Below, in pieces: positions 16,335 through 58,155 of a stretch of 64,000 bases of DNA (position 1 is its first letter; the number at the start of each line of letters is the position of its first letter). The translations under genes were made by a program, and so were the position numbers. The DNA is taken from NCBI GenBank assembly GCA_973895155.1, contig OZ316892.1, positions 386,917 to 450,916 of the forward strand, written 5' to 3'. Origin of the DNA: Marsupella aquatica. Lineage: Eukaryota; Plantae; Marchantiophyta. Below the pieces are notes generated by a model that made no database searches, was not told where the DNA came from, and was given only the letters and a program-made list of their open reading frames with translations.

Positions 16335-16490
16335 TGTGATGCCTAGACAGGAATCACTCGGCCGGTTAAGTGGGTAAAGCAGGAAGGCACCCTAGGAACA
16401 CCTTAGTATAGGGACAAAACAAGGAAAATATAAACAATTAGGGGCAACCATGGAACCCGGGCAGAGGCCGGAGGTAAGGCTGAGGGTGAA
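16335..16490 (+). repeat. LTR A, first 156 bp only (remainder lost by deletion)
   Basis: Matches the LTR start, then a 13-bp filler and a jump into pol. Confidence 0.9.
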
Positions 16491-16503
16491 GGATTTCAAG
16501 GAA

Positions 16504-16814
16504 ATCAAGGATTTTGCCAAGCTAGCTTTACCATTAACCAATATGCTCAAGGCAGGAGCAGACTTCGAACCCACACCCGAACGAGTCACAGCGGTGGTAG
16601 AATTAAAGCAGATGTTAGTAGAGGCCCCAGTCATGATAGCACCGGACTGGAACAAAGATTTTCATGTTTTTGTAGATGTCTCGGGCTTCTGTATTGGCTC
16701 AGTACTAAGTCAGTTGGATGAGAAAGGAAGGGACCATCCCATATACTTCGCAAGCCGTCAGCTTGCCGATGCCGAACGGAACTACTCTACCACGGAAAGA
16801 GAAGCATTAGGAGT
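16504..16814 (+). pseudogene. pol: pol fragment (RT connection/RNase H N-terminus)
   Basis: IKDFAKLALPLT...FHVFVDVSGFCIGSVLSQ...NYSTTEREALGV, matching 34645-34955. Confidence 0.92.
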
Positions 16815-17425: not shown

Positions 17426-20400
17426 ATGGAACCCGGGCAGAGGCCGGAGGTAAGGCTGAGGGTGAAAACCCGATTAGGGTTAGGGCGCGTTAAGCGTCGG
17501 CGGCTAGGAAGGATCAACGGGAAGAAGGACCGGCAGAGGGGAGGGGTAAGGAGCGCTTGCAGGAGATGGTGGCTCATTTGCGAGCACAAACTAGGCAGAC
17601 GACTACGGGAGGCCAACTACTGTCAGCTGCTTAGGCAAGCACTCGGGGAGAGAGTAGATACCGACGATCGACCTAAGGAGGGTATGAGCAACGTCAATCA
17701 AGCGGCACATTTCTGGGGATGCCTGTTCGAACGGGCAACTGAGTACATCAAGACTTACGAGGACGAGGAGTCAGAAAGGGCAGCTCGAGAACGGCAGGAG
17801 CTCGCTCGATTGTGGGAGCTGCAGAAGACGGCTTTCTTAGGAGGCGAACTCATCAAGGACGAGTTCCTGTGGACGCCTACTTCCAATCAACTCGACGATC
17901 TTCTGTTTTGCAAAGACAGCGTCGTCGGCATCCGAGAGGCCATCAAGAACTGCAACGACATACACTGGGAATTAAAGGGTAGCACGGAAAGGTGGACCCA
18001 GGCAACGGTGCTAGGAGAAACCTCCACAGCAGCAGAGATGAAGAGGAAGGGGGCCGTCAACGATGAAGCCACCCCGGCAAAAAGAACGAGGTCGGCGGCA
18101 CCAAAGAGGCCAGCCGAGCAGCAGAGCAGGAGGCAGGGAGAAGCCGAAGAGGAGGAGGTCGATCCCATCAAGGCCATTCCAACCAGGGATGACACCTGGA
18201 AGGGCTGGGCGGCAACCCTACCGGTGGAGGTGCAACTACATTTTGCACGGGAGGAGGATGCATGCTTTACGGCCATGCAGACCAAGAAGTACCAAGGCTT
18301 CATGGCCGGATCCGGCTTGGAGGCCTTTGTAAGATTACCATGGCTGAAGCCGGAGGTACCGGAGTCAGACCTATTAGAATTCGTGGGGTCATGGGAACCC
18401 GAGACCAATTGCACGAGGATATATGGGAAGGATTTCTATCTTACTCCCAAGGTAATTGCCGAAGTGTTTGGCTTGCCGATAGGCAATAAGACCAAAGTTG
18501 ATACCAGGAAGACCCTGCCTGACAAGGAGTTCCGGTCATTCCCCGGGCCATCAACGAAGAATGGCTTCTTCCGGAACACCTGCACCAACCCGCACATAGG
18601 AGAGATGATCGACTTCTTGCGGGTGACCATGCATTGTAACTTGCCGAGGGCAGAGATCGGCAAGGCACAGGTCTATCTGGCAGAAAGGCCAGACCCAAGC
18701 CGGGACTACAACGGGTACCTCCTCAACCAATTGAAGAAGATCTTAAAGGAGGAGCAGCAGGTAATCGGCATGGGGAGCGTGTCACGGCTTGGCTATCACA
18801 TGCCGCTGTTGTGCCGGTATGCCAGAGGTCAGACTTTTGCCCCGGTACTTCCCCTGCAGGTAAGGGCACCCGAGGAAGCTCCAACGCCGAGGCCGTTGGC
18901 TGAGAAGCCTCAACCACCTGTTAGTCCTACGATCGAGCAGGTGTTTAGGCCCAGGAAGGAAGACTTGCCGATGCAGCAACCAGGCATGCAGAGTCTGCTG
19001 AAACTACTGGAGAAAGAAAAGAAATCGGCATCGGCAACAACAACGGCAACGGCAACAATGCAGGACACTACTACAGAGGTAGGCCTACACCGGCTCACAA
19101 GAGAAAACCCCTTTGCTGGAGACAAGGAGAGAATCAGGCCAGAATCCAAGCCAGGTGTTCGAATGTACGTGGGAACCTCAAGCTCCGAATCTGAGGCAGA
19201 ATTGCCTGAAGCTCCTACCGACGAAGAGGAGAGGGAGAAGCCGGACGTCCAAGAGGTAGAGGAGGCAGTGGAGGACTGCAGCCATGATAATTCCGGCTAT
19301 GGGTCGGACCATCACGTTCCAGGAGTAAGGACCTGTGGCTGGTTTGTCCCCACACTTCCAAGGGTAGTGCGAGGGGACCCCAACCAGCAGAGTAGCCCTG
19401 AGTCTCCCCCACCAGATGTTGCTCCCCCGAGCTTCGACGGCATAAAACAGACGGTGCAGGAATTTCAGGAGCGAATCAAGCAGGAGGAGGAGGCCGCCCT
19501 GGCTAAGGAAAAGGATTTACCAGGAGGAGATTGGCCGGAGGACATCAGGCGGCTAGCCAAAAAAGGAAGCAAACCTCTAGCCACGATTGAAGAGATCCGC
19601 AGGACGGCTTGGGAGCAGAGGCCGCGATGGGCGATGCCGATCACTTCTACTTACTCCACCTACGCTAAGAATAGAGCCATGGAGTATGGTGAGATGTGTG
19701 GGGAACTTGCGCTCGGCATCTTTGGAGAGGAGTTGGAAGTAGGACCCTTTTTCCATAGGGAGCAGTTGGAGAAGCACCAATTAGAAGAAGCGGTGGCTTT
19801 AGAGAGAAGCAAGAAGGACGAGGTCATTCGGCGGCTTAGGAGGATGGAAGCCGAGATTGAAGATCTAAGGGCGGCCAAGAAAGCCCAAGATGAACTGCGG
19901 ATTAAACGACATAAGCTGAACATCATGCAGGGGCAGTTGGACACCGCGCAGGCTGATAATCAGAATATCAAGGATAAACTGACTCAGACGCAGGAAGAGT
20001 TGGCCGACACGATCAAAGAGAGGGAGAAGTGGAAGCAAGAGCTGAAGAATACAGAGGAGGCCCACATAACAGCCAACAGCCGGGCCATGGCGGAGACCCA
20101 AAGAAAGGAATGGGCGTTGAAAGGGGAGCTCGAGAAAATCCGCGGAGCCCTTGAGCAGAAGGAGGCCGAGTTAGGGAAATCCTATCAAGGGATTATGGCG
20201 CTGCAGCAGGAGCTTGCGTCCCTGACGGCCAGCTTCAAGGCCGACCTAAGGGAGAAGGACGAGATGCTCGAACAGACTTACGCCAAGATGAACCAGATGG
20301 AGTCTGTCATCATTGCAGAGCTCGACAAGGAGCTAAGAGCAACCCAGGAGGAGAGGGCTACCTTGAAGAAGGAATTGGAGGAAGCCCACAGGGAGCAGGA

Positions 20401-21049
20401 GGAGGCCAAAAACGAGCTGGAGGGGGCACGTAAGGACCTGGATGAAACCCAAGAGGAGTTGGAGGAAATCACGAGGAAGATGGAGAACCTACAGCGGCCG
20501 GCCGACAACCAAACAGAGCGGCTGAAGAAACAAGCCGCAGTATTTAAATGCTTAGCTGCAGCAGGTCCATCTCCCGTTGGGACAAACCAGTTACCAGGGG
20601 TGGTAATTGCCGAAGGACAAGCCGCGCCAACTGCACCAGTGCCGGAAGTAAGTGGGAAGGGGAAGGGACCAGCTGCCGAGCCACCAACGAAGAAGAAGCG
20701 GAAACCTTCAGGGTCAAGGAGTAATACGACTTCACAGGCCGTGGTGATCAAGGAGGTAGACCCAGCACCGACCCCAGACAGGGTCACGGCTAAGGATCCA
20801 ACTACCCTAGGGGAAGGGGAGGCCGAAGCCGAGGGAGTGGCTGAAGCCGAAGCCGTGGGAGTGGCTGAGGCCGAAGCCGTGGGTATTGCCGAGGCCGGTG
20901 TCGAGGCTGAACCCGAAGGTGGACCCAGTCAGGCCGATGGAGAGTTGACTCAGTCAAGGGCAGGTAATCTGTCAGAGAATGAACCTACGGCAGTGGCTGA
21001 GGAGGAAGTGTTGGGGGCGTCCATTGAGGATCCACCACCAGTGTCGTGA
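17426..21049 (+). CDS. LTR-encoded 1207-aa accessory protein (basic N-terminus, PMD/Transposase_32-like motif, acidic linker, long coiled coil, acidic tail), intact
   Basis: Open for 3.6 kb from an ACCATGG start at LTR position 116; LLEFVGSWEPETN..YGKDFYLTPKVIAEVFGLPIG; heptad-rich E/K/Q/L region ~19760-20545. Confidence 0.88.
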   Translation: MEPGQRPEVRLRVKTRLGLGRVKRRRLGRINGKKDRQRGGVRSACRRWWLICEHKLGRRLREANYCQLLRQALGERVDTDDRPKEGMSNVNQAAHFWGCLFERATEYIKTYEDEESERAARERQELARLWELQKTAFLGGELIKDEFLWTPTSNQLDDLLFCKDSVVGIREAIKNCNDIHWELKGSTERWTQATVLGETSTAAEMKRKGAVNDEATPAKRTRSAAPKRPAEQQSRRQGEAEEEEVDPIKAIPTRDDTWKGWAATLPVEVQLHFAREEDACFTAMQTKKYQGFMAGSGLEAFVRLPWLKPEVPESDLLEFVGSWEPETNCTRIYGKDFYLTPKVIAEVFGLPIGNKTKVDTRKTLPDKEFRSFPGPSTKNGFFRNTCTNPHIGEMIDFLRVTMHCNLPRAEIGKAQVYLAERPDPSRDYNGYLLNQLKKILKEEQQVIGMGSVSRLGYHMPLLCRYARGQTFAPVLPLQVRAPEEAPTPRPLAEKPQPPVSPTIEQVFRPRKEDLPMQQPGMQSLLKLLEKEKKSASATTTATATMQDTTTEVGLHRLTRENPFAGDKERIRPESKPGVRMYVGTSSSESEAELPEAPTDEEEREKPDVQEVEEAVEDCSHDNSGYGSDHHVPGVRTCGWFVPTLPRVVRGDPNQQSSPESPPPDVAPPSFDGIKQTVQEFQERIKQEEEAALAKEKDLPGGDWPEDIRRLAKKGSKPLATIEEIRRTAWEQRPRWAMPITSTYSTYAKNRAMEYGEMCGELALGIFGEELEVGPFFHREQLEKHQLEEAVALERSKKDEVIRRLRRMEAEIEDLRAAKKAQDELRIKRHKLNIMQGQLDTAQADNQNIKDKLTQTQEELADTIKEREKWKQELKNTEEAHITANSRAMAETQRKEWALKGELEKIRGALEQKEAELGKSYQGIMALQQELASLTASFKADLREKDEMLEQTYAKMNQMESVIIAELDKELRATQEERATLKKELEEAHREQEEAKNELEGARKDLDETQEELEEITRKMENLQRPADNQTERLKKQAAVFKCLAAAGPSPVGTNQLPGVVIAEGQAAPTAPVPEVSGKGKGPAAEPPTKKKRKPSGSRSNTTSQAVVIKEVDPAPTPDRVTAKDPTTLGEGEAEAEGVAEAEAVGVAEAEAVGIAEAGVEAEPEGGPSQADGELTQSRAGNLSENEPTAVAEEEVLGASIEDPPPVS

Positions 21050-30317: not shown

Positions 30318-30321
30318 TTTT

Positions 30322-30339
30322 TGGCGCTAGATGGAGGGG
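30322..30339 (+). promoter_or_regulatory. primer-binding site, probably tRNA-Asn
   Basis: TGGCGCTAGATGGAGGGG 4 nt after the LTR end; from memory, one mismatch to the complement of the plant tRNA-Asn(GUU) 3' end (TGGCGCTAGAAGGAGGGG). Confidence 0.75.
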
Positions 30340-30386
30340 GCATTTCTTAAGCCGTGAGATATGAAGTTAGAACGGAAGCGTAGGTA

Positions 30387-33300
30387 ATGACTGACCTTAC
30401 GCCGAGGGAAGAAAGAGTGATTCAACGGGAGAGAGCTCGACTGCAGCAGCTCACCGGGTGGCATGATACACAGCGACTGAGAGGGGCAGAAAGAGCTGGT
30501 AGCTCCGAAACTGGAAGTGGCGTCGAAGAAGACATACCAGAAGAAGAGTCGGTAAGGAGAAGTGAGTCTCCAACCGACATGGGGGAACCAGAGGCACGGC
30601 CAGACGAGAGGCCAGGGACCAGATTGAGCCAGCGGTCGCGCATACATTACAAGGCATTTCATGGGAGAGGAGATGAGGATCCGGACGAATGGTTGGATGA
30701 TTTCGAGGGAACCGCTGCAGCAAATGGAGAATTGGCCATCAAGATGCAGATTCTTCCCGGCCTGTTCAAGGGTGAGGCTAGGCCTTGGTACAGAGCATTA
30801 GATGTGGAAGATCAAGCCATCTGGGATATCTTCAAAACACTCTTTGTTAAGGAGTTTCGACCCATTGGAACTTCAGAACTAGCAGTGCTGAAGTTGGGAC
30901 AACTTCGGTTCAAGGAGAACAAATCCTTCAGGAAGTTCTTGCAACGCTTTCAGAAACTGGTAAGACGTACAAAGACCAATGCATCTGAAGGTATGCAACT
31001 TCAATGGTTGGTGAATGCTTTGCCACAGAAGATGAGTTTTGCAATTAGGAAGGAGAACCCGGAGACTTTAGCCGAAGCAATTAAGGATATTCAATTATAC
31101 ATTAATGCAGATATCACAAGCCGGAAGAAACAGCTTAAGTCTGAGAGTTCCTCATCAGAGGAGGGATCACCCCATAAGAAAAAAGATAAGAAGAAGAAAC
31201 ATCCCAAGAAGTCTAGAAGTGATAAGTCAAGCTCGGATAGTGGGAGTAGCAAGAGTGAGTCATCTTCTAGTTCTGAAGAAGAAAAAACTAGGAAAAGGAA
31301 GGGCAGAAGGAGAGGGAAGACGAAAGTCAAGATGGAGGCTAAGCCACCAGATAACATCGTAGCCCTTACCGAGCAACTTAAGGCTATCATTGCAGAGGTA
31401 AAACCAAAGAAGAAGGTAGTACAGGAGGATAGCTCTGTATGGTGTGCCTTATGTTATAAAACCGGACACCATAAAGATGCGTGTCCTAAGCTTAATACTA
31501 ATCATGTTCGGCATGTGGCCGAGATCAGACCATGTCAGGGAGAAGTAGAGTACTTTTTGGGAGATGCCGCTGATAGTGTTTTCGGCATCAGTGAGACTGG
31601 AGCACGAGACCTATCCAACAGACCTGCATCTCTGTGGTCAGGGTTAAGGAACAATCCAGGAGAGATGTATCCTCGGATTATTCAGAACCCGTCAGTACCT
31701 CCTAGGCCGAATGTGCAAAGATTTGCGGCGTGCTATAATTGTGGTCAACCTGGCCATTTTGCTAGAGAATGCCCGAATGCACGCAAACAGGGTGATGGAC
31801 AACCAGCTCAGCTATGTATGGGATGTCGACAGGAAGGTCATATGCTAGGGCAATGTCCTACTTGGTTGGCAGGCCTGGCCGCAAATCATAAGCTTTTGCC
31901 GATCAAGATCTTACCGCCAGGTACTACCCCCGGAGGAGTTCAAATCAACCACATCGAACTAGGATGGCAAGAGGATGCCGAGGCAGAGTTCGTACCATCT
32001 GATGATGAGGCCGAAGCCCTATCAACCTTCTCAGAGGAGGATTTAGATCATGATTGCTACCGGGTCTCTACTCGATCTACCAGAAGGAAGGAAAGGTGGG
32101 ATGGGCTGGCCAAAAATAAAGGGAAGGTTACGGAGGAAAGGATCGACTCTTCGTCAACATCAACAGAAGGAGAAGGGAGGGCTCCGGCAATACAGGTAAG
32201 CCATGAGCCCACCAGTGAAACCAATCCTTCACAAGATAGCGACTTCAATCGAGATCATCCTAAGTTGTTCTACCCCTCTGTTACGGCTAGTGTTAAGGAA
32301 CAACTAAGAGAATTAGAAACCCTGGAGAATACCGAAGCCATTGCCAAGGATGTAAAACGAGCAAAAGCATTGTTTGCTTCGGAAGACCCAACAGCTGTGG
32401 AGACTAGCGTGGCAAAACTGGCCGAATCCAAGACGGAAACACCACCAGAAGAGAAGCCGATTGTTCCCTATGACCTGGCTAAAGATGTACTAGAATCTAG
32501 AGTCTCGGCAACAGTAGGTCAACTATTGAAAAATAGCCCGTACTTCCGGAAGCAATTAAGGAAGGCTATTCTCGGCAAGCCGAGATTACCCAAGGTAGCA
32601 ACCAGATCCGACGTACTAATGATAGAAGAAGATCAAGGAGCCCCAGCATTACCATTAATGATTCAAGGAGAATTATTACTACGGGTACCCATCGATGGAG
32701 GATCAGGGGTATGTATTATGATTGATTCAACAGCAAAAGGGTGGGGTCTAACACCGGAGATGACTGGAAGAGTGTTGAACATGGCCAATGGATATCAGGT
32801 CATTCCGACGGGAGTGTTAACCGGCATCAAGACAGAGATAGGAGGTATCTTCTTTAGCATTAACTATGTAGTAATGAAGCCGGTAAATCCTACGTCATTC
32901 CGGCTATTGATTGGTAGGCCATGGCTGTACCTAGCCGAGGTAATAGAAGATTGGGGTAAAAAGCAGTTCACTTTCGGGACCCCCTCTATCACGGTATCCT
33001 GGGACACTAAGGATGACCATAGGAAAAGCATAAGGGAAGTAGATGGGTACGACAGTGGACTGGAGTCAGCCGATGAAGTACGTTGGTTAGAATGCCTCAC
33101 TAACCTAACCGAAGAAGGTGTCTTTGGACCAGAGGTAGCCCCCAGCGGATTATGGCAAGAACCAATGGAAGGTGACTTGGAAGAAGAAGACGAAGAGGTC
33201 GAGGACTGCTTTACAATAGAATCCACCTTTTTAGCTGCAATTCCGGAGGAAGTAAAGGATGTAGACCAATTGGATGAAACGGCTAAGTGGGGAGCAGTAG

Positions 33301-33464
33301 CAGGGACAGTGGATTTTCTGCAGGCGTTGTGGCAGAGCCGACGGGGTCCACAACGCCATCGATCATCGGCAAGGAATAAATACCAAGGGATCGGCATACA
33401 AGCCGATTACGAGGGCAGAACAAATCGAGGCCCTATTAGAAGCCGAGAGAGCACAGCGGCCTAA
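30387..33464 (+). CDS. gag: Gag-protease ORF, copy 1 (open; the C-terminal ~28 aa arise from a 1-nt deletion near 33377)
   Basis: Retrotrans_gag-like FHGRGDEDPDEWLDDF..GEARPWY; three CX2CX4HX4C knuckles; protease IDGGSG and LLIGRPWL. Confidence 0.92.
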   Translation: MTDLTPREERVIQRERARLQQLTGWHDTQRLRGAERAGSSETGSGVEEDIPEEESVRRSESPTDMGEPEARPDERPGTRLSQRSRIHYKAFHGRGDEDPDEWLDDFEGTAAANGELAIKMQILPGLFKGEARPWYRALDVEDQAIWDIFKTLFVKEFRPIGTSELAVLKLGQLRFKENKSFRKFLQRFQKLVRRTKTNASEGMQLQWLVNALPQKMSFAIRKENPETLAEAIKDIQLYINADITSRKKQLKSESSSSEEGSPHKKKDKKKKHPKKSRSDKSSSDSGSSKSESSSSSEEEKTRKRKGRRRGKTKVKMEAKPPDNIVALTEQLKAIIAEVKPKKKVVQEDSSVWCALCYKTGHHKDACPKLNTNHVRHVAEIRPCQGEVEYFLGDAADSVFGISETGARDLSNRPASLWSGLRNNPGEMYPRIIQNPSVPPRPNVQRFAACYNCGQPGHFARECPNARKQGDGQPAQLCMGCRQEGHMLGQCPTWLAGLAANHKLLPIKILPPGTTPGGVQINHIELGWQEDAEAEFVPSDDEAEALSTFSEEDLDHDCYRVSTRSTRRKERWDGLAKNKGKVTEERIDSSSTSTEGEGRAPAIQVSHEPTSETNPSQDSDFNRDHPKLFYPSVTASVKEQLRELETLENTEAIAKDVKRAKALFASEDPTAVETSVAKLAESKTETPPEEKPIVPYDLAKDVLESRVSATVGQLLKNSPYFRKQLRKAILGKPRLPKVATRSDVLMIEEDQGAPALPLMIQGELLLRVPIDGGSGVCIMIDSTAKGWGLTPEMTGRVLNMANGYQVIPTGVLTGIKTEIGGIFFSINYVVMKPVNPTSFRLLIGRPWLYLAEVIEDWGKKQFTFGTPSITVSWDTKDDHRKSIREVDGYDSGLESADEVRWLECLTNLTEEGVFGPEVAPSGLWQEPMEGDLEEEDEEVEDCFTIESTFLAAIPEEVKDVDQLDETAKWGAVAGTVDFLQALWQSRRGPQRHRSSARNKYQGIGIQADYEGRTNRGPIRSRESTAA
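33311..33370 (+). promoter_or_regulatory. putative -1 frameshift signal, copy 1
   Basis: G_GAT_TTT then GGCGTTGTGG...CCACAACGCC stem. Confidence 0.7.
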
Positions 33465-39615: not shown

Positions 39616-39619
39616 TTTT

Positions 39620-39637: not shown

Positions 39638-39684
39638 GCATTTCTTAAGCCGTGAGATATGAAGTTAGAACGGAAGCGTAGGTA

Positions 39685-42678
39685 ATGACTGACCTTACGC
39701 CGAGGGAAGAAAGAGTGATTCAACGGGAGAGAGCTCGACTGTAGCAGCTCGCCGGGTGGCATGATACACAACGACTGAGAGGGGCAGAAAGAGCTGGTAG
39801 CTCCGAAACTGGAAGTGGCGTCGAAGAAGACATACCAGAAGAAGAGTCGGTAAGGAGAAGTGAGTCTCCAACCGACATGGGGGAACCAGAGGCACGGCCA
39901 GACGAGAGGCCAGGGACCAGATTGAGCCAGCGGTCGCGCATACATTACAAGGCATTTCATGGGAGAGGAGATGAGGATCCGGACGAATGGTTGGATGATT
40001 TCGAGGGAACCGCTGCAGCAAATGGAGAATCGGCCATCAAGATGCAGATTCTTCCCGGCCTGTTCAAGGGTGAGGCTAGGCCTTGGTACAGAGCATTAGA
40101 TGTGGAAGATCAAGCCATCTGGGATATCTTCAAACCACTCTTTGTTAAGGAGTTTCGACCCATTGGAACTTCATAACTAGCAGTGCTGAAGTTGGGACAA
40201 CTTCGGTTCAAGGAGAACAAATCCTTCAGGAAGTTCTTGCAACGCTTTCAGAAACTGGTAAGACGTACAAAGACCAATGCATCTGAAGGTATGCAACTTC
40301 AATGGTTGGTGAATGCTTTGCCACAGAAGATGAGTTTTGCAATTAGGAAGGAGAACCCGGAGACTTTAGCCGAAGCAATTAAGGATATTCAATTATACAT
40401 TAATGCAGATATCACAAGCCGGAAGAAACAGCTTAAGTCTGAGAGTTCCTCATCAGAGGAGGGATCACCCCATAAGAAAAAAGATAAGAAGAAGAAACAT
40501 CCCAAGAAGTCTAGAAGTGATAAGTCAAGCTCGGATAGTGGGAGTAGCAAGAGTGAGTCATCTTCTAGTTCTGAAGAAGAAAAAACTAGGAAAAGGAAGG
40601 GCAGAAGGAGAGGGAAGACGAAAGTCAAGATGGAGGCTAAGCCACCAAATAACATCGTAGCCCTTACCGAGCAACTTAAGGCTATCATTGTAGAGGTAAA
40701 ACCAAAGAAGAAGGTAGTACAGGAGGATAGCTCTGTATGGTGTGCCTTATGTTATAAAACCGGACACCATAAAGATGCGTGTCCTAAGCTTAATACTAAT
40801 CATGTTCGGCATGTGGCCGAGATCAGACCATGTCAGGGAGAAGTAGAGTACTTTTTGGGAGATGCCGCTGATAGTGTTTTCGGCATCAGTGAGACTGGAG
40901 CACGAGACCTATCCAACAGACCTGCATCTCTGTGGTCAGGATTAAGGAACAATCCAGGAGAGATGTATCCTCGGATTATTCAGAACCCGTCAGTACCTCC
41001 TAGGCCGAATGTGCAAAGATTTGCGGCGTGCTATAATTGTGGTCAACCTGGCCATTTTGCTAGAGAATGCCCGAATGCACGCAAACAGGGTGATGGACAA
41101 CCAGCTCAGCTATGTATGGGATGCCGACAGGAAGGTCATATGCTAGGGCAATGTCCTACTTGGTTGGCAGGCCTGGCCGCAAATCATAAGCTTTTGCCGA
41201 TCAAGATCTTACCGCCAGGTACTACCCCCGGAGGAGTTCAAATCAACCACATCGAACTAGGATGGCAAGAGGATGCCGAGGCAGAGTTCGTACCATCTGA
41301 TGATGAGGCCGAAGCCCTATCAACCTTCTCAGAGGAGGATTTAGATCATGATTGCTACCGGGTCTCTACTCGATCTACCAGAAGGAAGGAAAGGTGGGAT
41401 GGGCTGGCCAAAAATAAAGGGAAGGTTACGGAGGAAAGGATCGACTCTTCGTCAACATCAACAGAAGGAGAAGGGAGGGCTCCGGCAATACAGGTAAGCC
41501 ATGAGCCCACCAGTGAAACCAATCCTTCACAAGATAGCGACTTCAATCGAGATCATCCTAAGTTGTTCTACCCCTCTGTTACGGCTAGTGTTAAGGAACA
41601 ACTAAGAGAATTAGAAACCCTGGAGAATACCGAAGCCATTGCCAAGGATGTAAAACGAGCAAAAGCATTGTTTGCTTCGGAAGACCCAACAGCTGTGGAG
41701 ACTAGCGTGGCAAAACTGGCCGAATCCAAGAGGGAAACACCACCAGAAGAGAAGCCGATTGTTCCCTATGACCTGGCTAAAGATGTACTAGAATCTAGAG
41801 TCTCGGCAACAGTAGGTCAACTATTGAAAAATAGCCCGTACTTCCGGAAGCAATTAAGGAAGGCTATTCTCGGCAAGCCGAGATTACCCAAGGTAGCAAC
41901 CAGATCCGACGTACTAATGATAGAAGAAGATCAAGGAGCCCCAGCATTACCATTAATGATTCAAGGAGAATTATTACTACGGGTACCCATCGATGGAGGA
42001 TCAGGGGTATGTATTATGATTGATTCAACAGCAAAAGGGTGGGGTCTAACACCGGAGATGACTGGAAGAGTGTTGAACATGGCCAATGGATATCAGGTCA
42101 TTCCGACGGGAGTGTTAATCGGCATCAAGACAGAGATAGGAGGTATCTTCTTTAGCATTAACTATGTAGTAATGAAGCCGGTAAATCCTACGTCATTCCG
42201 GCTATTGATTGGTAGGCCATGGCTGTACCTAGCCGAGGTAATAGAAGATTGGGGTAAAAAGCAGTTCACTTTCGGGACCCCCTCTATCACGGTATCCTGG
42301 GACACTAAGGATGACCGTAGGAAAAGCATAAGGGAAGTAGATGGGTACGATAGTGGACTGGAGTCAGCCAATGAAGTACGTTGGTTAGAATGCCTCACTA
42401 ACCTAACCGAAGAAGGTGTCTTTGGACCAGAGGTACCCCCCAGCGGATTATGGCAAGAACCAATGGAAGGTGACTTGGAAGAAGAAGACGAAGAGGTCGA
42501 GGACTGCTTTACAATAGAATCCACCTTTTTAGCTGCAATTCCGGAGGAAGTTAAGGATGTAGACCAATTGGATGAAACGGCTAAGTGGGGAGCAGTAGCA
42601 GGGACAGTGGATTTTCTGCAGGCGTTGTGGCAGAGCCGACGGGGTCCACAACGCCATCGATCATCGGCAAGGAATTAA
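39685..42678 (+). pseudogene. gag: Gag-protease ORF, copy 2, with two nonsense mutations
   Basis: CAG>TAG at 39742-39744 and GAA>TAA at 40174-40176 relative to copy 1; natural stop TAA at 42676-42678. Confidence 0.92.
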
Positions 42679-45600
42679 ATACCAAGGGATCGGCATACAA
42701 GCCGATTACGAGGGCAGAACAAATTGAGGCCCTATTAGAAGCCGAGAGAGCACAGCGGCCTAACTCTCAGGAGCAAGAGGTGGATGAGATGGACAGACAT
42801 GATCTAGAGCCAAGGCAGGAAGGGGAGCCGACCACTAATTCAAAACCAAATAGACCGGTAAGGGGACAATCTATGGACACCAAGGAAGGGACCGACTCGG
42901 CTAGTCCAGCCGAGATCCCAGTTTATGGAGGTATGAGATTAGAGAGACTGGAAGCCGAACTGGACCCGAATTTGAAGAAGCAGATTAATATGATCCAAGC
43001 ACGGCAATATCGGAAGCTCGACTTAGGAGAGGGAAGAGAACTGAACTTAGGGAGAAACCTAGCACCTGAGCTCGAGAAAGAGATCAGTGACTTATTGATT
43101 GAATTTCAGGATGTGTTTGCATGGAGTCACCAAGATCTAAAGGGAGTAGATCCAACACTAGGGGAACATCGAATTGATCTCATGTTAGGAGCCAAATCAT
43201 TTCGACAACCAATTCGAAGGATGAACCCGAAGTATTCCCTGCTGGTCAAAACAGAAATCGACAAACTAGTGGAAGCTGGATTCATCACTCCAGTCCTGCA
43301 TTCAGACTGGGTGTCTCCAATTGTGATAGTTCCCAAGAAAGCTGGACCCGATGGTAAACCCAAGATCCGGGTTTGTCAGGATTACAGGAAGCTGAATGAA
43401 GCAACATTAAAAGACCATTTTCCTTTACCGTTTACTGATATGGTACTAGACATGGTAGCCAGTCATGAACTATATTCATTCATGGATGGATACTCTGGTT
43501 ATAACCAAATCAGGATTCGGCAGGAAGACCAAATCAAGACGGCCTTCATCACGGAATGGGGGATCTATGTCTTCAATCGTATGCCGTTTGGACTCTGCAA
43601 CGCACCAGCTATGTTCCAACGATTAATGGTGAACATTTTTCATGATTACTTGAGAAAGTTCATGGAAATCTTCATTGATGACTTTGCAGTATTCGGGAAG
43701 GCATCGAAACATGCTAAATACCTCAGGAAAACCTTCATGAGATGTAGAGAGGTGGGTCTCAAGTTACACCCAGATAAATGTTTTTTTGCAGTAACCGAGG
43801 GGGTGCTACTAGGTCACAAGGTATCAAGGAAGGGCATTGAGATTGACAAAGGTAAGCTAGCAGTATGGCTAGATATCATGCAACCTAAGAACATAAAGGA
43901 TGTAAGATCCTTCTTGGGATGCATTGGTTACTATCGCCGGTTCATCAAGGATTTTGCCAAGCTGGCTTTACCATTAACCAATATGCTCAAGGCAGGAGCA
44001 GACTTCGAACCCACACCCGAACGAGTCACAGCGGTGGTAGAATTGAAGCAGATGTTAGTAGAGGCCCCAGTCATGATAGCACCGGACTGGAACAAAGATT
44101 TTCATGTTTTTGTAGATGTCTCGGGCTTCTGTATTGGCTCAGTACTAAGTCAGTTGGATGAGAAAGGAAGGGACCATCCCATATACTTCGAAAGCCGTCA
44201 GCTTGCCGATGCCGAACGGAACTACTCTACCACGGAAAGAGAAGCATTAGGAGTCATTTATTCTTGTAAAAAGTTTAGGCATTATTTACTAGGGTACAAG
44301 GTAATCTTTCATACTGATCATGAAAGTTTGAAGTACCTAGTCAATAAGCCGGACCTTACAGGCAGAGTAGCAAGATGGATTTTGCTATTACAGGAGTTTG
44401 ACTATGAGCTGAGGATCAAGCCGGGAAAGTTACATGCCAATGCCGACTTCTTTTCAAGGATCACAGGTAAACCTGCCATGGATTGCATCGATGATCGATT
44501 CCCCGACGAGGAGCTATTCGTTGTGGAAATAGCTGGTACATGGTACCCTGAGATTTTACAATTTCTCAGCACTTCCAGATTACAGCCAGGATTAAGCCGA
44601 GAGCAAGCCGCAGTCTTTGTGCGGAAGGTCAGACAGTATCAGTGCATTAAAGGCATACTGCACAAGCATGGAATCAACGGCACGATTCAAAGGTGTTTGG
44701 AAAAGAGAGAGGTAAAACGAGTCCTACGGGCCATGCATGGAGAGGAGGCCGGAGGACATTTTGCCCCAGTAACCACGTCTAAGAAGATATTAAATGCCGG
44801 TTACTGGTGGCCCACCTTGCACAAAGGTGTCTATCAGTTTATCAAACAATGCGATCCTTGTCAACGAGAGGGAGGACCAAGGGCGTCCACCAGGCATCCA
44901 CTGCACCCTATTCTACCTCTGGCACCATTCGAGAAGTGGGGTATTGATTACATTGGACCTCTGAAACCACTGACCCACCCTCGACGGAACAAGTACATAA
45001 TCCTGGCTACGGATTATGCAACTAAATGGGTAGAGGCCAGACCAACAACGAAGGATGATGCAATTACTACGGCTAGATTCATGTATGAGCAGATCTTCAC
45101 CAGGTATGGAGCACCCCTAGAATTAGTTAGTGATAGAGGAACCCATTTTTTGAATGATATAATTAGTCGTTTAAATGAGCAGTATTTAGTTAAACATAGG
45201 CCTACTACTCCCTACCATCCAAAGGCAAACGGGTTGACAGAACGAGCAAACGGAATCATAGGAAAGATATTGAACAAGACAGTAGCTCAGAACAAACTCG
45301 ATTGGGATGATAAATTGTTTGCTGCTGTTTTTGCTTACAATCTGGCCTATAAATCCACTACCGGTCATACACCCTTCTTCTTAACCTTTGGACAAGAAGC
45401 CCTGGTACCCATGCAACTTGAGATACCGACATTTCAAGTTACAATTGAGGAAAGAGCCTCAGCAGAGGAGAGCCTAAAGGAGCGAGAATATAGGTTAGAA
45501 GCGTTAGAGGAAGCGAGAATGATTTCAGCCGAGAGAGTAGAATATAGACAGAACATCATGAAGCAGCAGTATGATAAAAGGTTAAAAGTAGTTAGTATTC

Positions 45601-45851
45601 ATACCGGTGATCTTGTGCTACTTTATGACAGTAGGTATAGTAGGTTTCCAGGAAAGCTTTACACTCGCTGGTTAGGACCCTTTAGAGTAACCATGATGTT
45701 CCCCAATGGCTCCGTGCAATTGGCCAACATTACGGGAGAGGTATATCCAGTTCGCATCCATTATGACCGCCTCAAGAAATACTATATGGACGAAGATGAA
45801 GTTGTTCGCGAGGACGCTTCACAATTAAGTGGGGAGCTATGTGATGCCTAG
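42585..45851 (+). CDS. pol: Pol RT-RNase H-integrase, intact frame, -1 relative to gag-PR; no chromodomain and no extra archaeal-type RNase H
   Basis: KDHFPLPF, YSFMDGYSGYNQI, FIDD, VDVSG..EREAL..TDH..ADFFSR, FPDEELF, H..GGHF..CDPC, GIDYIGP, SDRGTHF, ERANG, WLGPF; the stop codon lies inside LTR E. Confidence 0.96.
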   Translation: MGSSSRDSGFSAGVVAEPTGSTTPSIIGKELNTKGSAYKPITRAEQIEALLEAERAQRPNSQEQEVDEMDRHDLEPRQEGEPTTNSKPNRPVRGQSMDTKEGTDSASPAEIPVYGGMRLERLEAELDPNLKKQINMIQARQYRKLDLGEGRELNLGRNLAPELEKEISDLLIEFQDVFAWSHQDLKGVDPTLGEHRIDLMLGAKSFRQPIRRMNPKYSLLVKTEIDKLVEAGFITPVLHSDWVSPIVIVPKKAGPDGKPKIRVCQDYRKLNEATLKDHFPLPFTDMVLDMVASHELYSFMDGYSGYNQIRIRQEDQIKTAFITEWGIYVFNRMPFGLCNAPAMFQRLMVNIFHDYLRKFMEIFIDDFAVFGKASKHAKYLRKTFMRCREVGLKLHPDKCFFAVTEGVLLGHKVSRKGIEIDKGKLAVWLDIMQPKNIKDVRSFLGCIGYYRRFIKDFAKLALPLTNMLKAGADFEPTPERVTAVVELKQMLVEAPVMIAPDWNKDFHVFVDVSGFCIGSVLSQLDEKGRDHPIYFESRQLADAERNYSTTEREALGVIYSCKKFRHYLLGYKVIFHTDHESLKYLVNKPDLTGRVARWILLLQEFDYELRIKPGKLHANADFFSRITGKPAMDCIDDRFPDEELFVVEIAGTWYPEILQFLSTSRLQPGLSREQAAVFVRKVRQYQCIKGILHKHGINGTIQRCLEKREVKRVLRAMHGEEAGGHFAPVTTSKKILNAGYWWPTLHKGVYQFIKQCDPCQREGGPRASTRHPLHPILPLAPFEKWGIDYIGPLKPLTHPRRNKYIILATDYATKWVEARPTTKDDAITTARFMYEQIFTRYGAPLELVSDRGTHFLNDIISRLNEQYLVKHRPTTPYHPKANGLTERANGIIGKILNKTVAQNKLDWDDKLFAAVFAYNLAYKSTTGHTPFFLTFGQEALVPMQLEIPTFQVTIEERASAEESLKEREYRLEALEEARMISAERVEYRQNIMKQQYDKRLKVVSIHTGDLVLLYDSRYSRFPGKLYTRWLGPFRVTMMFPNGSVQLANITGEVYPVRIHYDRLKKYYMDEDEVVREDASQLSGELCDA
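42609..42668 (+). promoter_or_regulatory. putative -1 programmed ribosomal frameshift signal (slippery heptamer plus stem-loop/pseudoknot)
   Basis: G_GAT_TTT in gag phase (42609-42615), 5-nt spacer, perfect 10-bp stem 42621-42630/42646-42655, loop GCCGA complementary to TCGGC at 42664-42668. Confidence 0.75.
45827..45836 (+). promoter_or_regulatory. polypurine tract
   Basis: AAGTGGGGAG, 3 nt before the TG of LTR E, within integrase codons. Confidence 0.75.
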
Positions 45852-53358: not shown

Positions 53359-54313
53359 CGGTGCAAGGGCGCCGTTCCTTTTAGGGAGGGCGGACGTGGA
53401 GGGAGGAGGCGTGAGTGGGCAGGGCGGGCGTGGAGGGAGGAGGCGTGAGTGGGCAGGGCGGGCAGGGCGGGCGCGGATCTCCATGTTTAGGATTAGGATC
53501 AGAACCAGGAGCGGCCCTGACACTTAGCTTAGTGGGATTGCGGTCCCACTGGTAGGAGCAACACTTGTGCTCCTGCCTTGCTGTACGTAGGTAGATTCGG
53601 GCAAGTAGATTACTGTTAAGTAGATTAGGCTTACGATGCAAAGAATGGCGGATCCACTACCAGGATAAGTACCTGGGCAGCGGGGAGCTCAGGGCCTCTT
53701 CTTTAGCAAGTTTTTAGTTTGCACCAGCCGGGCTGGGATCAAGTAGTACGAGAAGCTCTCGGTTAGTCATACAGTGACCCTTGTGTATATTCATGTTTCC
53801 TCATGCCTAAGAGCTGAATAGAGTTGGCCTCACGGCTTAGTTCGCAGAACTTGTGTATGAGATGTACTGTTTGTATGGCAAGTGCATGGTATGACTCAGT
53901 CAGAATGAGTCATTTTGCTATTTGTGTGTCGCATTAACTTGTGTGAAGAGTGCCCACATCAACAGAAGGAAGGAAAGTAAGCAGGGGAGTGAGAGTTGGA
54001 TGTGTCGAGCTGAGAGAGGTCTTAGCGGCTTAACCAAGCCTATTGGGGATCATTCCGGCGGCGGAATCCAAACATACCTAACAGGAAGACAGGGGAAGAC
54101 AAGGGAAGGCCTATATTAGGCCGGCTACGTATCTCATGACCCGATGAAGGATCTGTCCAGTATATGTGTGTAAAATGTTAATAGTAGTAGTAGAAGGTTA
54201 GCAGCGTCCCATGCCGCTAAGCCGCGGAAACGGCCTCGCCAAGCACGAAACCTGCGGGAATCGGCTTGAGCTGGGGGGTTTCTTGGGTTTAGGGAGCCAT
54301 GGGACGCACCACA
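50472..54313 (+). repeat. 5'-truncated LTR unit F (LTR position 852 to end), 3842 bp, type-B tail
   Basis: Starts ATCCCATCAAGG directly after CACCACA. Confidence 0.93.
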
Positions 54314-57200
54314 ATCCCATCAAGGCCATTCCAACCAGGGATGACACCTGGAAAGGCTGGGCGGCAACCCTACCGGTGGAGGTGCAACTACATTTTGCAC
54401 GGGAGGAGGATGCATGCTTTATGGCCATGCAGACCAAGAGATACCAAGGCTTCATGGCCGGATCCGGCTTGGAGGCCTTTGTAAGATTACCATGGCTGAA
54501 GCCGGAGGTACCGGAGTCAGACCTATTAGAATTTGTGGGGTCATGGGAACCCGAGACCAATTGCATGAGGATATATGGGAAGGATTTCTATCTTACTCCC
54601 AAGGTAATTGCCGAAGTGTTTGGCCTACTGATAGGCAATAAGACCAAAGTTGATACCAGGAAGACCTTGCCTGACAAGGAGTTCCGGTCGTTCCCCGGGC
54701 CATCAACGAAGAATGGCTTCTTCCGGAACACCTGCACCAACCCGCACATAGGAGAGATGATCGACTTCTTGCGGGTGACCATGCATTGTAACTTGCCGAG
54801 GGCAGAGATCGGCAAGGCACAGGTCTATCTGGCAGAAAGGCCAGACCCAAGCCGGGACTACAATGGGTACCTCCTCAACCAATTGAAGAAGATCTTAAAG
54901 TAGGAGCAGCAGGTAATCGGCATGGGGAGCGTGTCGCGGCTGGGCTATCACATGCCGCTGTTGTGCCGGTATGCCAGAGGTCAGACTTTTGCCCCGGTAC
55001 TTCCCCTGCAGGTAAGGGCACCCGAGGAAGCTCCAACGCCGAGGCCGTTGGCTGAGAAGCCTCAACCACCTGTTAGTCCTACGATCGAGCAGGTGTTTAG
55101 GCCCAGGAAGGAAGACTTGCCGATGCAGCAACCAGGCATGCAGAGTCTGCTGAAACTACTGGAGAAAGAAAAGAAATCGGCATCGGCAACAACAACAGCA
55201 ACGGCAACAATGCAGGACACTACTACAGAGGTAGGCCTACACCGGCTCACAAGAGAAAACCCCTTTGCTGGAGACAAGGAGAGAATCAGGCCGGAATCCA
55301 AGCCAGGTGTTCGAATGTACGTGGGAACCTCAAGCTCCGAATCTGAGGCAGAATTGCCTGAAGCTCCTACCGACGAAGAGGAGAGGGAGAAGCCGGACGT
55401 CCAAGAGGTAGAGGAGGCAGTGGAGGACTGCAGCCATGATAATTCCGGCTATGGGTCGGACCATCACGTTCCAGGAGTAAGGACCTGTGGCTGGTTTGTC
55501 CCCACACTTCCAAGGGTAGTGCAAGGGGACCCCAACCAGCAGAGTAGCCCTGAGTCTCCCCCACCAGATGTTGCTCCCCCGAGCTTCGACGGCATAAAAC
55601 AGACGGTGCAGGAATTTCAGGAGCGAATCAAGCAGGAGGAGGAGGCCGCCCTGGCTAAGGAAAAGGATTTACCAGGAGGAGATTGGCCGGAGGACATCAG
55701 GCGGCTAGCCAAAAAAGGAAGCAAACCTCTAGCCACGATTGAAGAGATCCGCAGGACGGCTTGGGAGCAGAGGCCGCGATGGGCGATGCCGATCACTTCT
55801 ACTTACTCCACCTACGCTAAGAATAGAGCCATGGAGTATGGTGAGATGTGTGGGGAACTTGCGCTCGGCATCTTTGGAGAGGAGTTGGAAGTAGGACCCT
55901 TTTTCCATAGGGAGCAGTTGGAGAAGCACCAATTAGAAGAAGCGGTGGCTTTAGAGAGAAGCAAGAAGGACGAGGTCATTCGGCGGCTTAGGAGGATGGA
56001 ACCCGAGATTGAAGATCTAAGGGCGGCCAAGAAAGCCCAAGATGAACTGCGGATTAAACGACATGAGCTGAACATCATGCAGGGGCAGTTGGACACCGCG
56101 CAGGCTGATAATCAGAATATCAAGGATAAACTGACTCAGACGCAGGAAGAGTTGGCCGACACGATCAAAGAGAGGGAGAAGTGGAAGCAAGAGCTGAAGA
56201 ATACAGAGGAGGCCCACATAACTGCCAACAGCCGGGCCATGGCGGAGACCCAAAGAAAGGAATGGGCGTTGAAAGGGGAGCTCGAGAAAATCCGCGGAGC
56301 CCTTGAGCAGAAGGAGGCCGAGTTAGGGAAATCCTATCAAGGGATTATGGCGCTGCAGCAGGAGCTTGCGTCCCTGACGGCCAGCTTCAAGGCCGACCTA
56401 AGGGAGAAGGACGAGATGCTCGAACAGACTTACGCCAAGATGAACCAGATGGAGTCTGTCATCATTGCAGAGCTCGACAAGGAGCTAAAAGCAACCCAGG
56501 AGGAGAGGACTACCTTGAAACAAGAACGGGAGGAAGCCCAGAAGGAACTAGAGGAGGCACGCAAGGACCTGGATGAGACCCAGGAGGAGTTGGAGGAAAT
56601 CACGAGGAAGATGGAGAACCTCCAGCGGCGGGCCGACAACCAAACAGAGCGGCTGAAGAAACAAGCCGCAGTATTTAGGTGCTTGTCTTCATCAGGCCCA
56701 ACTCCAATTGGGGCAACCAAGTTACCAGGAGTGGTACTGGCCGAAGAAAAAGCCGCGCCAACTGCACCAGTGTCGGAGGTAAGTGGGAAGGGGAAGGGAC
56801 CAGCTGCCGAACCAGAAAAGAAGAAAAAACGGAAACCTTCAGGGTCAAGGAGTAATCCGACTCCACAAGCCGTGGTGACCAAAGAGGTAGAACCAGCACC
56901 ATCCTCCGACATGAATACGGCAATAGATCCCGCTATGATCACAGGTAGGGATGGTGCGGCCCAAGCCGAACTACTCAGTAAGGAGGCCAGTATTCCAGAT
57001 CCGCCTCTTGAGCAGGCCGGGGAGACCGTAGCCGAGGCTGAGATTCTCGAGCCGATGCCGACGCCGATGGTGGACCCAGTCAGGCCGATGGAGAGTTGAC
57101 TCAGTCAAGGGCAGGTAATCTGTCAGGGAATGAGCCTACGGCAGTGGCTGAGGAGGAAGCGTTGGGGGCGTCCATTAAGGATCCACCACCGGTGTCGTGA
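54211..57200 (+). pseudogene. junction-fusion LTR protein copy with the same lesions as in unit F
   Basis: TAG at 54901-54903; 725-aa downstream ORF. Confidence 0.8.
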
Positions 57201-58155
57201 CGGTGCAAGGGCGCCGTTCCTTTTAGGGAGGGCGGACGTGGAGGGAGGAGGCGTGAGTGGGCAGGGCGGGCGTGGAGGGAGGAGGCGTGAGTGGGCAGGG
57301 CGGGCAGGGCGGGCGCGGATCTCCATGTTTAGGATTAGGATCAGAACCAGGAGCGGCCCTGACACTTAGCTTAGTGGGATTGCGGTCCCACTGGTAGGAG
57401 CAACACTTGTGCTCCTGCCTTGCTGTACGTAGGTAGATTCGGGCAAGTAGATTACTGTTAAGTAGATTAGGCTTACGATGCAAAGAATGGCGGATCCACT
57501 ACCAGGATAAGTACCTGGGCAGCGGGGAGCTCAGGGCCTCTTCTTTAGCAAGTTTTTAGTTTGCACCAGCCGGGCTGGGATCAAGTAGTACGAGAAGCTC
57601 TCGGTTAGTCATACAGTGACCCTTGTGTATATTCATGTTTCCTCATGCCTAAGAGCTGAATAGAGTTGGCCTCACGGCTTAGTTCGCAGAACTTGTGTAT
57701 GAGATGTACTGTTTGTATGGCAAGTGCATGGTATGACTCAGTCAGAATGAGTCATTTTGCTATTTGTGTGTCGCATTAACTTGTGTGAAGAGTGCCCACA
57801 TCAATAGAAGGAAGGAAAGTAAGCAGGGGAGTGAGAGTTGGATGTGTCGAGCTGAGAGAGGTCTTAGCGGCTTAACCAAGCCTATTGGGGATCATTCCGG
57901 CGGCGGAATCCAAACATACCTAACAGGAAGACAGGGGAAGACAGGGGAAGGCCTATATTAGGCCGGCTACGTATCTCATGACCTGATGAAGGATCTGTCC
58001 AGTATATGTGTGTAAAATGTTAATAGTAGTAGTAGAAGGTTAGCAGCGTCCCATGCCGCTAAGCCGCGGAAACGGCCTCGCCAAGCACGAAACCTGCGGG
58101 AATCGGCTTGAGCTGGGGGGTTTCTTGGGTTTAGGGAGCCATGGGACGCACCACA
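54314..58155 (+). repeat. 5'-truncated LTR unit G, 3842 bp, tandem copy of F; forms the array's right end
   Basis: Same ATCCC junction, same stop and deletion as F, a few SNPs; followed by TAGAG. Confidence 0.93.

Follow-up and report, generated by a model that had tools for sequence, protein, structure and literature searches.

The 42-kb block at positions 16335-58155 of the 64,000-nucleotide stretch of Marsupella aquatica contig OZ316892.1 that we analyzed (the window) is a real array, in which a single Ty3/gypsy retrotransposon family stands head-to-tail at one site with all of its units on the plus strand. The array is a base-resolved snapshot of nested insertions turning into a tandem repeat, a transition mostly deduced from satellites that are already mature. 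Self-nesting that leads to tandems is a known route, and the more novel part is the gene for a 1,207-aa protein that lies inside the long terminal repeat (LTR) of the family; we consider this gene to matter more than the array itself.

Architecture of the array

The family LTR is 4,660 bp long and bounded by TG..CA (TGTGATG..CACCACA). Five LTR starts (16335, 16815, 17311, 34956, and 45840) and seven LTR ends (21970, 26139, 30317, 39615, 50471, 54313, and 58155) were mapped on the plus strand and none of either on the minus strand, which bears out the 41.8-kb array of uniformly oriented units described in an earlier note on this DNA. The borders that the note had given, CAGAG (16330..16334) before TGTGATG on the left and TAGAG (58156..58160) after CACCACA on the right, were likewise found; these two target site duplications (TSDs) differ in one of five letters. 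Between them lie seven long LTR copies, two gag-pol regions and a 311-bp RNase H fragment, and no foreign insertion.

At the left end, L0 (16335..16490; LTR 1-156) is a relic of the outermost 5' LTR. It is followed by 13 nt of filler at an internal deletion joint (16491..16503), which resembles the adjacent downstream sequence and is probably an end-joining scar, and by the RNase H fragment (16504..16814), which ends in GGAGT. L1 (16815..17310; LTR 1-496) ends in TCGCT, and the complete, solo-type LTR L2 (17311..21970) contains the LTR-internal ORF (17426..21049), with its ATG at LTR 116 and its stop ending at LTR 3739. L3 (21971..26139) and L4 (26140..30317) both run from LTR 492 to the end. 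The first internal region, I1 (30318..34955), comprises the primer binding site (PBS), gag with a zinc knuckle, reverse transcriptase (RT) and RNase H, within which it is cut at GGAGT; the complete LTR L5 (34956..39615) comes next, with an open 1,207-aa ORF at 35071-38694. I2 (39616..45839) extends through integrase, with a PBS, a gag interrupted by stops, RT-RNase H-integrase and the polypurine tract (PPT) at its end, and its pol stop falls within the first 12 nt of the following LTR. That LTR, L6 (45840..50471), is complete at 4,632 bp and has a frame break in the ORF near LTR 2961, while L7 (50472..54313) and L8 (54314..58155), the latter carrying the outer 3' end, both run from LTR 852 to the end. 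In the 22 kb flanking the array the sole trace of the family is an old, 80%-identical LTR head; no gag or pol of the family was found there. Flanks free of young family copies make the locus unlike a centromeric cluster of the family.

Classification of the element

Pfam matches occur in the order PF03732, PF00098, PF00078, PF17917, PF17921, and PF00665, corresponding to gag, RT, RNase H, and integrase; no Pfam hit was obtained for a protease. Together with the TG..CA LTRs, the PBS TGGCGCTAG after the LTR end and the PPT GGGGAGCTA before the LTR start, these are hallmarks of Ty3/gypsy. The TSD is 5 bp both around the solo LTR and around the array, and the element measures 15.5 kb with its extra ORF. 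In the RT tree it groups with two Calypogeia proteins and one further protein (support 100/99), with liverwort elements and apart from its angiosperm homologs. Its PBS may be of the tRNA-Asn type; Athila elements have a PBS for tRNA-Asp or tRNA-Asn. Likenesses to Athila, as characterized by Neumann et al. (2019; PMC6317226) and Vicient and Casacuberta (2020; PMC7264820), are the 5-bp TSD, LTRs of up to ~5 kb, an additional ORF that follows pol in sense orientation, and a pol with no hit to a chromodomain, an archaeal RNase H or any second RNase H family. Unlike the extra ORFs of Athila, which these papers place in the internal region between pol and the 3' LTR, the ORF here is downstream of the PPT and therefore in both LTRs and in the solo LTR. 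Two other assignments were rejected. Phygy/Selgy elements have a 4-bp TSD (NCGN in Phygy), are short and have no extra ORF, and the Tat clade (Ogre, Retand, TatI-III) needs an archaeal RNase H, of which there is none in the pol ORF at 42585-45851.

Self-junctions

Three types of self-junction, each exactly on an LTR terminus as the earlier note had recognized, punctuate the array. Junction A joins RNase H GGAGT to an LTR start (at 16815 and 34956) and only the 5' half of the site is present. Junction B lies at LTR 492-496 (TCGCT), its left half occurring once (17311) and its right half twice (21971 and 26140). Junction C joins an LTR end to ATCCC at LTR 852 (at 50472 and 54314) and only the 3' half is present. 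Hence the claim that every junction occurs twice stands for A, C, and the right half of B but fails for the left half of B. Both TSD halves are visible at B only, one of the three junctions, where, as had been claimed, they flank the complete 4,660-bp LTR L2; this argues for ordinary intermolecular integration and establishes self-insertion at this site.

The one-sidedness of A and C raises the question of whether they are scars of autointegration. Under this explanation the ends of a cDNA attacked their own molecule, the resulting deletion circles (LTR-to-RNase H for A and LTR 852-end for C) recombined into a resident LTR, and B alone is truly nested. Deletion circles require one-sided, same-strand joints that coincide exactly with an LTR terminus, which A and C are, and circles of Arabidopsis SISYPHUS are reported to comprise a single LTR each, together with the sequence that reaches to the integration site (PMC7197481). 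A reaction in cis would also account for repeated self-hits without targeting. However, such a joint fits A and C but not B, which shows ordinary nesting at this very locus, and nesting followed by one crossover, which accounts for both missing halves, gives the same pattern. Two distinct circles would also need to reach one locus among hundreds of LTRs, the account of SISYPHUS itself calls such circles non-productive for integration (PMC7197481), and the outermost units carry a common haplotype, as a single founder predicts. We therefore regard autointegration as unlikely.

Divergence and recombination among units

The LTR copies differ pairwise by 0.13-4.4%, mostly by transitions, a pattern that argues against an assembly artefact. 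A false duplication of a repeat would fit two observations from four other runs: junction C is missing from the 15 joints listed, and no listed piece bridges junction B; those runs, however, are without the private letters of the array copy and probably represent other individuals. Every unit has substitutions of its own, even the closest pair (L7 and L8) being 5 transitions apart in 3,842 bp with no indel, haplotype switches obey crossover geometry, and the bounding TSD matches, all of which leave an artefact highly improbable. Nearly as improbable is the formation of the compound structure during reverse transcription, by template switching or read-through, with insertion as one unit. The single TSD around the entire block would agree with this, but the divergence implies that the units differ in age, the 5' LTR starts lack junction C, and template switching should retain native PPT-LTR-PBS joints, not LTR termini joined to internal sites with a TSD.

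The middle units are chimeric, which supports unequal recombination, as the earlier note had proposed. L7 tracks its downstream neighbor L8 over LTR 892-3822 (143 of 144 informative sites) and its upstream neighbor L6 over 4301-4489 (3/3 sites). L3 is L2-like from position 1171 and identical to L2 over 2001-3050, and it has a derived letter (676) in common with its downstream neighbor L4, this 5' signal consisting of one informative letter. Both units thus switch haplotype as unequal exchange predicts, and the prediction is supported. The RNase H flanks of the two copies of junction A (16504-16814 and 34645-34955) have 0 differences over 311 bp, and the fragment has 3 differences from the native copy at 43944-44254.

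The 3' part of L4 and L7/L8 have in common a block of >100 substitutions and three indels (~3020-3716), as expected of parts of the predicted founder. Contig depth over this block is about half that of neighboring bins, so many members of the family may carry it, which weakens the argument for a founder. Furthermore, at four sites (1171-1945) the 5' part of L4 agrees with L6 and not with L5, and a 9-bp deletion at 4422 is common to L6, L7, and L8; for both, extra conversion events must be assumed.

Proposed history of the array

We consider it probable that a founder element was hit three times by same-strand copies of its own family and that recombination by the host subsequently deleted some units and duplicated others. 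What can be seen directly is the founder TSD, the junctions at LTR termini, and a solo LTR that retains both halves of its TSD. The founder would have integrated at the CAGAG site, after which one copy would have entered its RNase H (GGAGT) and another its 3' LTR (852-856). A single crossover between the two invaders could then have dropped both missing junction halves together, leaving LTR-I', LTR-I-LTR, and LTR(852-end) in direct succession. The LTR-I' unit may subsequently have been doubled by unequal exchange, and a further copy would have entered positions 492-496 of the duplicated LTR and collapsed to a solo LTR. Unequal exchange would also have doubled the 492-end unit, with the 852-end unit as its most recent duplication, and an end-joining deletion may have removed most of the first unit. 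We leave the exact order of steps loose, because the copies have been mixed by conversion. That the units measure 4 kb and are coding follows from the position of the family's accessory gene, inside U3.

A route of nested insertion and recombination has been described before (PMC5932611, PMC3648361, PMC6911290). McGurk and Barbash (2018; PMC5932611) describe how an insertion gives a direct repeat that unequal exchange expands, LTR elements readily forming tandems, and consider that tail-to-internal junctions are possibly nested insertions. In contrast to the tandems they report, the present array has three base-resolved self-insertions in one element, chimeric units, and a repeat unit that is a 3.8-4.2-kb coding LTR fragment. 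Our search of the same open literature library that was used for the LTR gene (below) found no self-insertion arrays.

How readily such a locus would form by chance depends on the abundance of the family. With assumed inputs and uniform insertion, each genome should contain 4e-5 to 0.03 loci hit three times on the same strand by their own family if the family share is 0.4-2.6%, and about 0.6-3 such loci if it is 6-8%; the low expectation means that some bias or a large burst is still needed. Contig depth, a rough guide to copy number, indicates roughly 100-200 internal regions, with LTR bins several times deeper.

The earlier note had gone further, suggesting that the integrase prefers its own family or its chromatin and that the array is a nascent satellite. 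In its strong form, this view would give the integrase a strong preference for CENH3 chromatin or its own family, perhaps under guidance from the LTR-encoded protein, and would make the locus a centromeric satellite in the making. Three self-hits with zero foreign insertions in 41.8 kb are in line with this, random insertion rarely yields such a locus at an assumed family share near 1%, and run X1 contains an additional, independent self-junction, a same-strand LTR-end joint into LTR position ~1495. Centrophilic nesting of Athila and Athila-derived, CENH3-bound arrays have also been reported (bioRxiv 10.64898/2026.09.17.752431). Yet in four other runs only 1 of 86 LTR-end contigs enters the 1.53-kb LTR target (95% interval 0.03-6%), a rate that fits random insertion or ~tenfold enrichment alike, the remaining 85 running onto mixed sequence outside the window, some of it possibly family DNA. 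The common orientation of all three self-insertions has a chance probability of p=0.125, and unequal exchange can multiply insertions only if they are on the same strand. Centrophilic clusters in the bioRxiv study are on both strands, same-strand repeats being ascribed to host recombination, and the flanks here contain no young family copy. A preference of the integrase is therefore not established, and we hold this explanation to be more doubtful than autointegration.

The term satellite is premature, as the units are of three types and no junction is present in more than two copies. CRM1TR/CRM4TR of maize (PMC3648361) and the Athila-derived arrays of Rosa canina (bioRxiv 10.64898/2026.09.17.752431) resemble the array in being tandems of LTR-retrotransposon sub-sequences for which a nested origin and local conversion are suggested, but they comprise 39-187 monomers or 43-239 kb in or near centromeres. 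A CRM-TR-type satellite, which needs many homogenized monomers, was thus rejected; the present array also differs from these in having its junctions exactly on LTR termini. In the survey of Jedlicka et al. (2019; PMC6911290), Ty3/gypsy families self-nest more often than copia, and LTRs and coding regions are under-targeted, whereas every one of the three hits in the present array fell in the LTR gene or RNase H.

A gene inside the LTR

The ORF fills 78% of the LTR with its 1,207 codons. The earlier count of seven long copies of the LTR gene against two gag-pol regions holds, although only two copies are complete (17426-21049 and 35071-38694); two lack the 5' end but are open, one has a frame break, and two lack the 5' end and contain a stop. 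Among variant sites shared between copies, 58/134 are synonymous where the same change spectrum predicts 36.5 (p 5e-5), as are 35/74 singletons where it predicts 24.4 (p 0.007). As 114 of the 134 shared sites fall within a single haplotype block and do not count as independent, the shared sites outside it were considered separately, and 11/20 are synonymous against 6.1 expected (p 0.019). Judged by these substitutions, the ORF is under purifying selection.

The protein has a conserved core at ~aa 245-460 and, as weak Pfam hits below cut-off suggest, an acidic middle and a coiled-coil-like C-terminal part. A full HMMER search gave 22 hits, of which 18 were kept in the alignment; a bacterial repeat protein (P0141) was dropped and three further hits that match the N-terminal part only were left out. 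There was no match to ORF residues 100-520 in a word-index protein search, no Pfam match to the core above the curated cut-off, including the Transposase_32 and ATHILA ORF-1 families that we had considered, and no PDB sequence match. A fold search with an AlphaFold model of the core also gave no match and is uninformative, as the model is poor (pLDDT 57, pTM 0.26). A Transposase_32/ATHILA-like Atlas lead (scores 0.89 and 0.87) is to be read as a lead only. The product likely acts in the nucleus as an accessory factor similar in kind to Transposase_32/Athila-ORF1, and would be made from spliced or LTR-promoted RNA. A TATA-like word at LTR 95 is kept in the 80%-identical older copy.

Accessory ORFs wholly or partly in the LTR occur in vertebrate retroviruses (sag of MMTV, nef of HIV and bel of foamy viruses) and have a few hundred codons, far from the size and LTR share of the ORF described here, to which we know of no sequence relationship of these U3 ORFs. 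The accessory ORFs of plant retrotransposons, for which no function is known, are sited between the LTRs in reviews (PMC6317226, PMC7264820), and an exact-phrase search of an open literature library found no LTR-internal ORFs in plant gypsy elements, which is no proof of absence. Being in U3, the gene would survive solo-LTR formation, by which the host usually disarms an element.

Relatives and a likely switch of polypurine tract

The nearest contig relative in the RT-RNase H tree, L001 (support 98/94), has the same PPT and LTR-start wording at 6565. Its homologous ORF of 745 aa (hhalign probability 93%, E 3e-7) lies upstream of this tract, and a twin tract is present just after pol, at 3762. 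A switch of the priming site from the tract behind the gene to the twin tract right after pol therefore likely moved the gene into the LTR, a reading drawn from one relative whose assembly is a single wrapped contig. With a sister element that combines the ancestral layout and a twin tract, comparison alone can test this mechanism of capture. At LTR 4020, a weak candidate for a relic tract (chance ~0.05) is not significant by itself.

By extension, a liverwort-type gypsy element that moved a 3.6-kb gene into its LTR by a PPT switch would make each solo LTR a self-contained gene with its own promoter; the protein might steer integration to, or unsilence, its own family, and self-insertion and unequal exchange could feed back into gene-amplifying arrays. 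We offer this full chain as speculation with little probability.

In a screen of 79 loci, L001 and L039 alone matched the core profile at E 0.05, and an LTR-internal ORF was found in none, most loci being too short or too distant to test. L003 was considered as a second case, with an ORF inside a putative 6.2-kb LTR, and rejected, as the end of its repeat is not at the PBS and the ORF is followed by a PPT. In L028 an extra ORF is also upstream of the PPT; it has a PF20167 hit below cut-off and weakly matches the LTR-ORF profile (probability 11%).

A Ty3/gypsy element with a gene inside its LTR

Self-comparison of the window showed the whole of 16335-58155 to be a single repeat family on one strand. 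The repeat unit (4,660 bp) begins TGTGATG and finishes CACCACA; a purine tract lies ahead of it, a PBS comes after it, and one complete copy has TCGCT on both sides, features that together identify it as a genuine LTR. In the internal region, the coding domains follow the Ty3/gypsy order (gag, RT, RNase H, integrase). Among named homologues, liverwort proteins align best over RT-RNase H (those of Calypogeia at 62-64%, those of Riccia at 45-55%), and in an RT-RNase H tree of 35 rows, including 24 homologues picked from 120 listed and 10 of 79 metagenome contig loci, the element groups with two Calypogeia proteins and one further protein (support 100/99). A bryophyte is the probable host.

The part of the array worth following is a selected 1,207-residue gene within the LTR, together with a relative that has a likely earlier layout. 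The pol stop lies within the first 12 nt of the LTR, and a 1,207-codon ORF spans LTR positions 116 to 3739. Selection was examined in six long LTR copies (copies are numbered L0 to L8 along the array), L7 being excluded as near-identical to L8. Synonymous changes account for 58 of 134 shared variant sites, against 36.5 expected, and for 35 of 74 singletons (24.4 expected); 114 of the 134 shared sites come from one haplotype block, outside which 11/20 are synonymous against 6.1 expected. Pairwise dN/dS between independent copies is 0.16-0.28 over positions 857-3040. The ORF core gave 22 matches at E ≤ 0.001 among 1.84 billion proteins, and of the ten examined, the three with a named source were all from Calypogeia fissa. 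It had no match in Pfam or PDB, nor in a fold search for which the search model was poor; the Atlas leads were a Transposase_32 cluster (0.89) and an ATHILA cluster (0.87). We infer that the product is a putative nuclear accessory factor, a role proposed for other extra ORFs (PMC7264820). In sections of the REXdb survey (PMC6317226) and of the extra-ORF review (PMC7264820) such ORFs lie in the internal region only, whereas here the ORF is inside the LTR. A phrase search of the literature found no LTR-internal ORFs in plant gypsy elements. Parallels to an LTR-located gene are MMTV sag, HIV nef and foamy virus bel.

Two haplotypes about 17% apart occur at LTR ~3020-3716 (window 37975-38671), where the ORF encodes a low-complexity C-terminal segment, and three in-frame indels (21, 6 and 24 bp) separate them. 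Other sequencing runs show reduced depth over this segment, so that two or more types may be common.

Probable route of the gene into the LTR

The nearest metagenome contig, L001 (61% in RT-RNase H), has a homologous 745-residue ORF located between pol and a PPT, and the wording of this PPT and the LTR start after it are those of the window element. A second, twin tract lies directly after pol in L001. In the window element, priming takes place at the tract beside the pol end, which puts its ORF in U3. Priming would have switched from the tract behind the ORF to the upstream tract, placing the ORF in the LTR; judged from the sequence of this one relative, such a switch is the simplest account and, by a small margin of confidence, the probable one. 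A possible relic tract is found at LTR 4020 (chance level ~0.05). In the more distant relatives L028 (14701 and 18050) and L039 (9594) a PPT-like tract also lies upstream of the extra ORF, in L028 additional to the tract at the LTR, so that twin tracts may be general in the group. Another contig, L003, carries a 6.2-kb direct repeat (1-6190 and 12557-18746, 99.9%) that takes in the 3′ region together with a 1,267-residue extra ORF; the repeats flank a single 2,014-residue gag-pol, and the contig is either tandem or wrapped.

Structure and growth of the array

From the left, the boundary word CAGAG is followed by L0 (LTR 1-156), a 13-nt filler, 311 bp of RNase H and junction A (RNase H GGAGT to LTR start). 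L1 (LTR 1-496) then runs from junction A to the left half of junction B (TCGCT, LTR 492-496), L2, a complete LTR, lies between the left and right halves of B, and L3 and L4 (each LTR 492-end) are preceded by the B right half and a second B right half, respectively. The internal region I1 runs from L4 up to RNase H and junction A, which is followed by L5, the internal region I2 and L6; L7 (LTR 852-end) is joined to L6 at junction C (LTR end to LTR 852, ATCCC) and L8 (LTR 852-end) to L7 at a second junction C, before the right boundary word TAGAG. All five LTR starts and all seven LTR ends are on the + strand. An earlier note had described these junctions as each occurring twice; their positions are correct, but B has its left half only once, A lacks its right half and C lacks its left half.

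The closest LTR pair, L7 and L8, is 0.13% apart (five transitions, no indels), other copies are up to 4.4% apart, mostly by transitions, and I1 differs from I2 at 25 of 4,638 sites. Because of these copy-specific differences (0.13-4.4% among the LTRs), the sequences argue against false duplication in the assembly.

The self-insertion that the note had proposed is borne out at junction B, where both TSD halves surround the solo LTR L2, as in ordinary nesting. For junctions A and C, one invader would have entered RNase H and another the 3′ LTR, and a single crossover between the two would remove both missing halves. The predicted founder parts, the 3′ part of L4 and L8 with its outer TSD, have in common a block of >100 substitutions and three indels, which favors this single-founder crossover, although the block itself may be widespread in the family; counting against it, some sharing patterns among the LTR copies require extra conversions. 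Autointegration deletion circles, reported from Arabidopsis SISYPHUS (PMC7197481), yield the same one-sided geometry as A and C, and we consider them an unlikely source compared with the crossover. The LTR target sites 492 and 852 (window 21971 and 50472) are in the same codon phase, and the frame is open through the joint, with an ATG near the LTR end out of frame.

Under unequal exchange, a new middle unit would be expected to start as its downstream neighbor and finish as its upstream neighbor. Of the 144 informative sites in LTR 892-3822, L7 is L8-like at 143, and it is L6-like at 3/3 in LTR 4301-4489, while L3 has one derived letter in common with L4, at LTR 676, and is L2-like from position 1171 onward; the unequal recombination suggested in the note is thus upheld in both units. 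L2 and L3 have no difference over LTR 2001-3050 yet differ at both ends, a pattern suggestive of subsequent conversion. At junction A, the RNase H flanks of both copies agree at every one of 311 bp, and A therefore formed once and was then copied.

Targeting and the satellite question

Part of the family was present in 10 sequencing runs, five of them with at least half of its words. Five of 13 listed runs were compared, and joints were counted in four, on a stretch comprising the LTR end and LTR 492-2021. One of 15 joints on this stretch came from an LTR end (run X1, same strand, LTR ~1495), and 85 contigs passed from the LTR end to sequence beyond the stretch (35+16+12+22; PBS-type rows excluded). 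Hence 1/86 LTR-end contigs entered the LTR stretch, against a random expectation of 0.09-0.4 based on assumed copy numbers and genome sizes, and the integrase preference for its own family that the note had inferred finds, at least as a strong preference, no confirmation. The X1 joint (stretch 21970 to 22976) had a depth of 353, the highest among the joints listed with it, and may represent a duplicated junction at another locus. Junction C was missing from the 15 joints and B was unbridged by any listed piece, which carries little weight, as the four runs lack this copy's private letters.

If insertion were uniform, a locus hit three times would seldom arise unless the family made up ~6% of the genome or were ~tenfold enriched (inputs assumed). 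The self-hits could possibly be explained by a regional bias of modest size, by a burst, or by selection acting against insertions at other sites. Autoinsertion in gypsy families (PMC6911290), tandems via insertion plus unequal exchange (PMC5932611) and retrotransposon-derived arrays (PMC3648361; bioRxiv 10.64898/2026.09.17.752431) are already known. We regard the array as a good but expected case of nesting and unequal exchange, in which targeting is unproven; what the note had observed is mostly right, but the array is not yet a satellite.

Other features of the window

The window flanks of the array lack both gag and pol and contain just a single old LTR head. This relative (4547-4984, + strand; 80% identical) ends after ~440 bp and retains a TATA-like word and the first ATG, its frame being broken. 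CACTA/En-Spm transposase fragments (PF02992, PF13963 and a weak DUF4216) lie at 9654-13517 (- strand), with a CACTA (Transposase_21) gene at 11733-13517 (-). Adjoining this gene, an open frame at 14091-14762 (-) encodes NSD-like PHD zinc fingers and is possibly carried by the CACTA element. At 60826-63715 there is a 578-bp tandem repeat of five copies (83% matches), unrelated to the retrotransposon.
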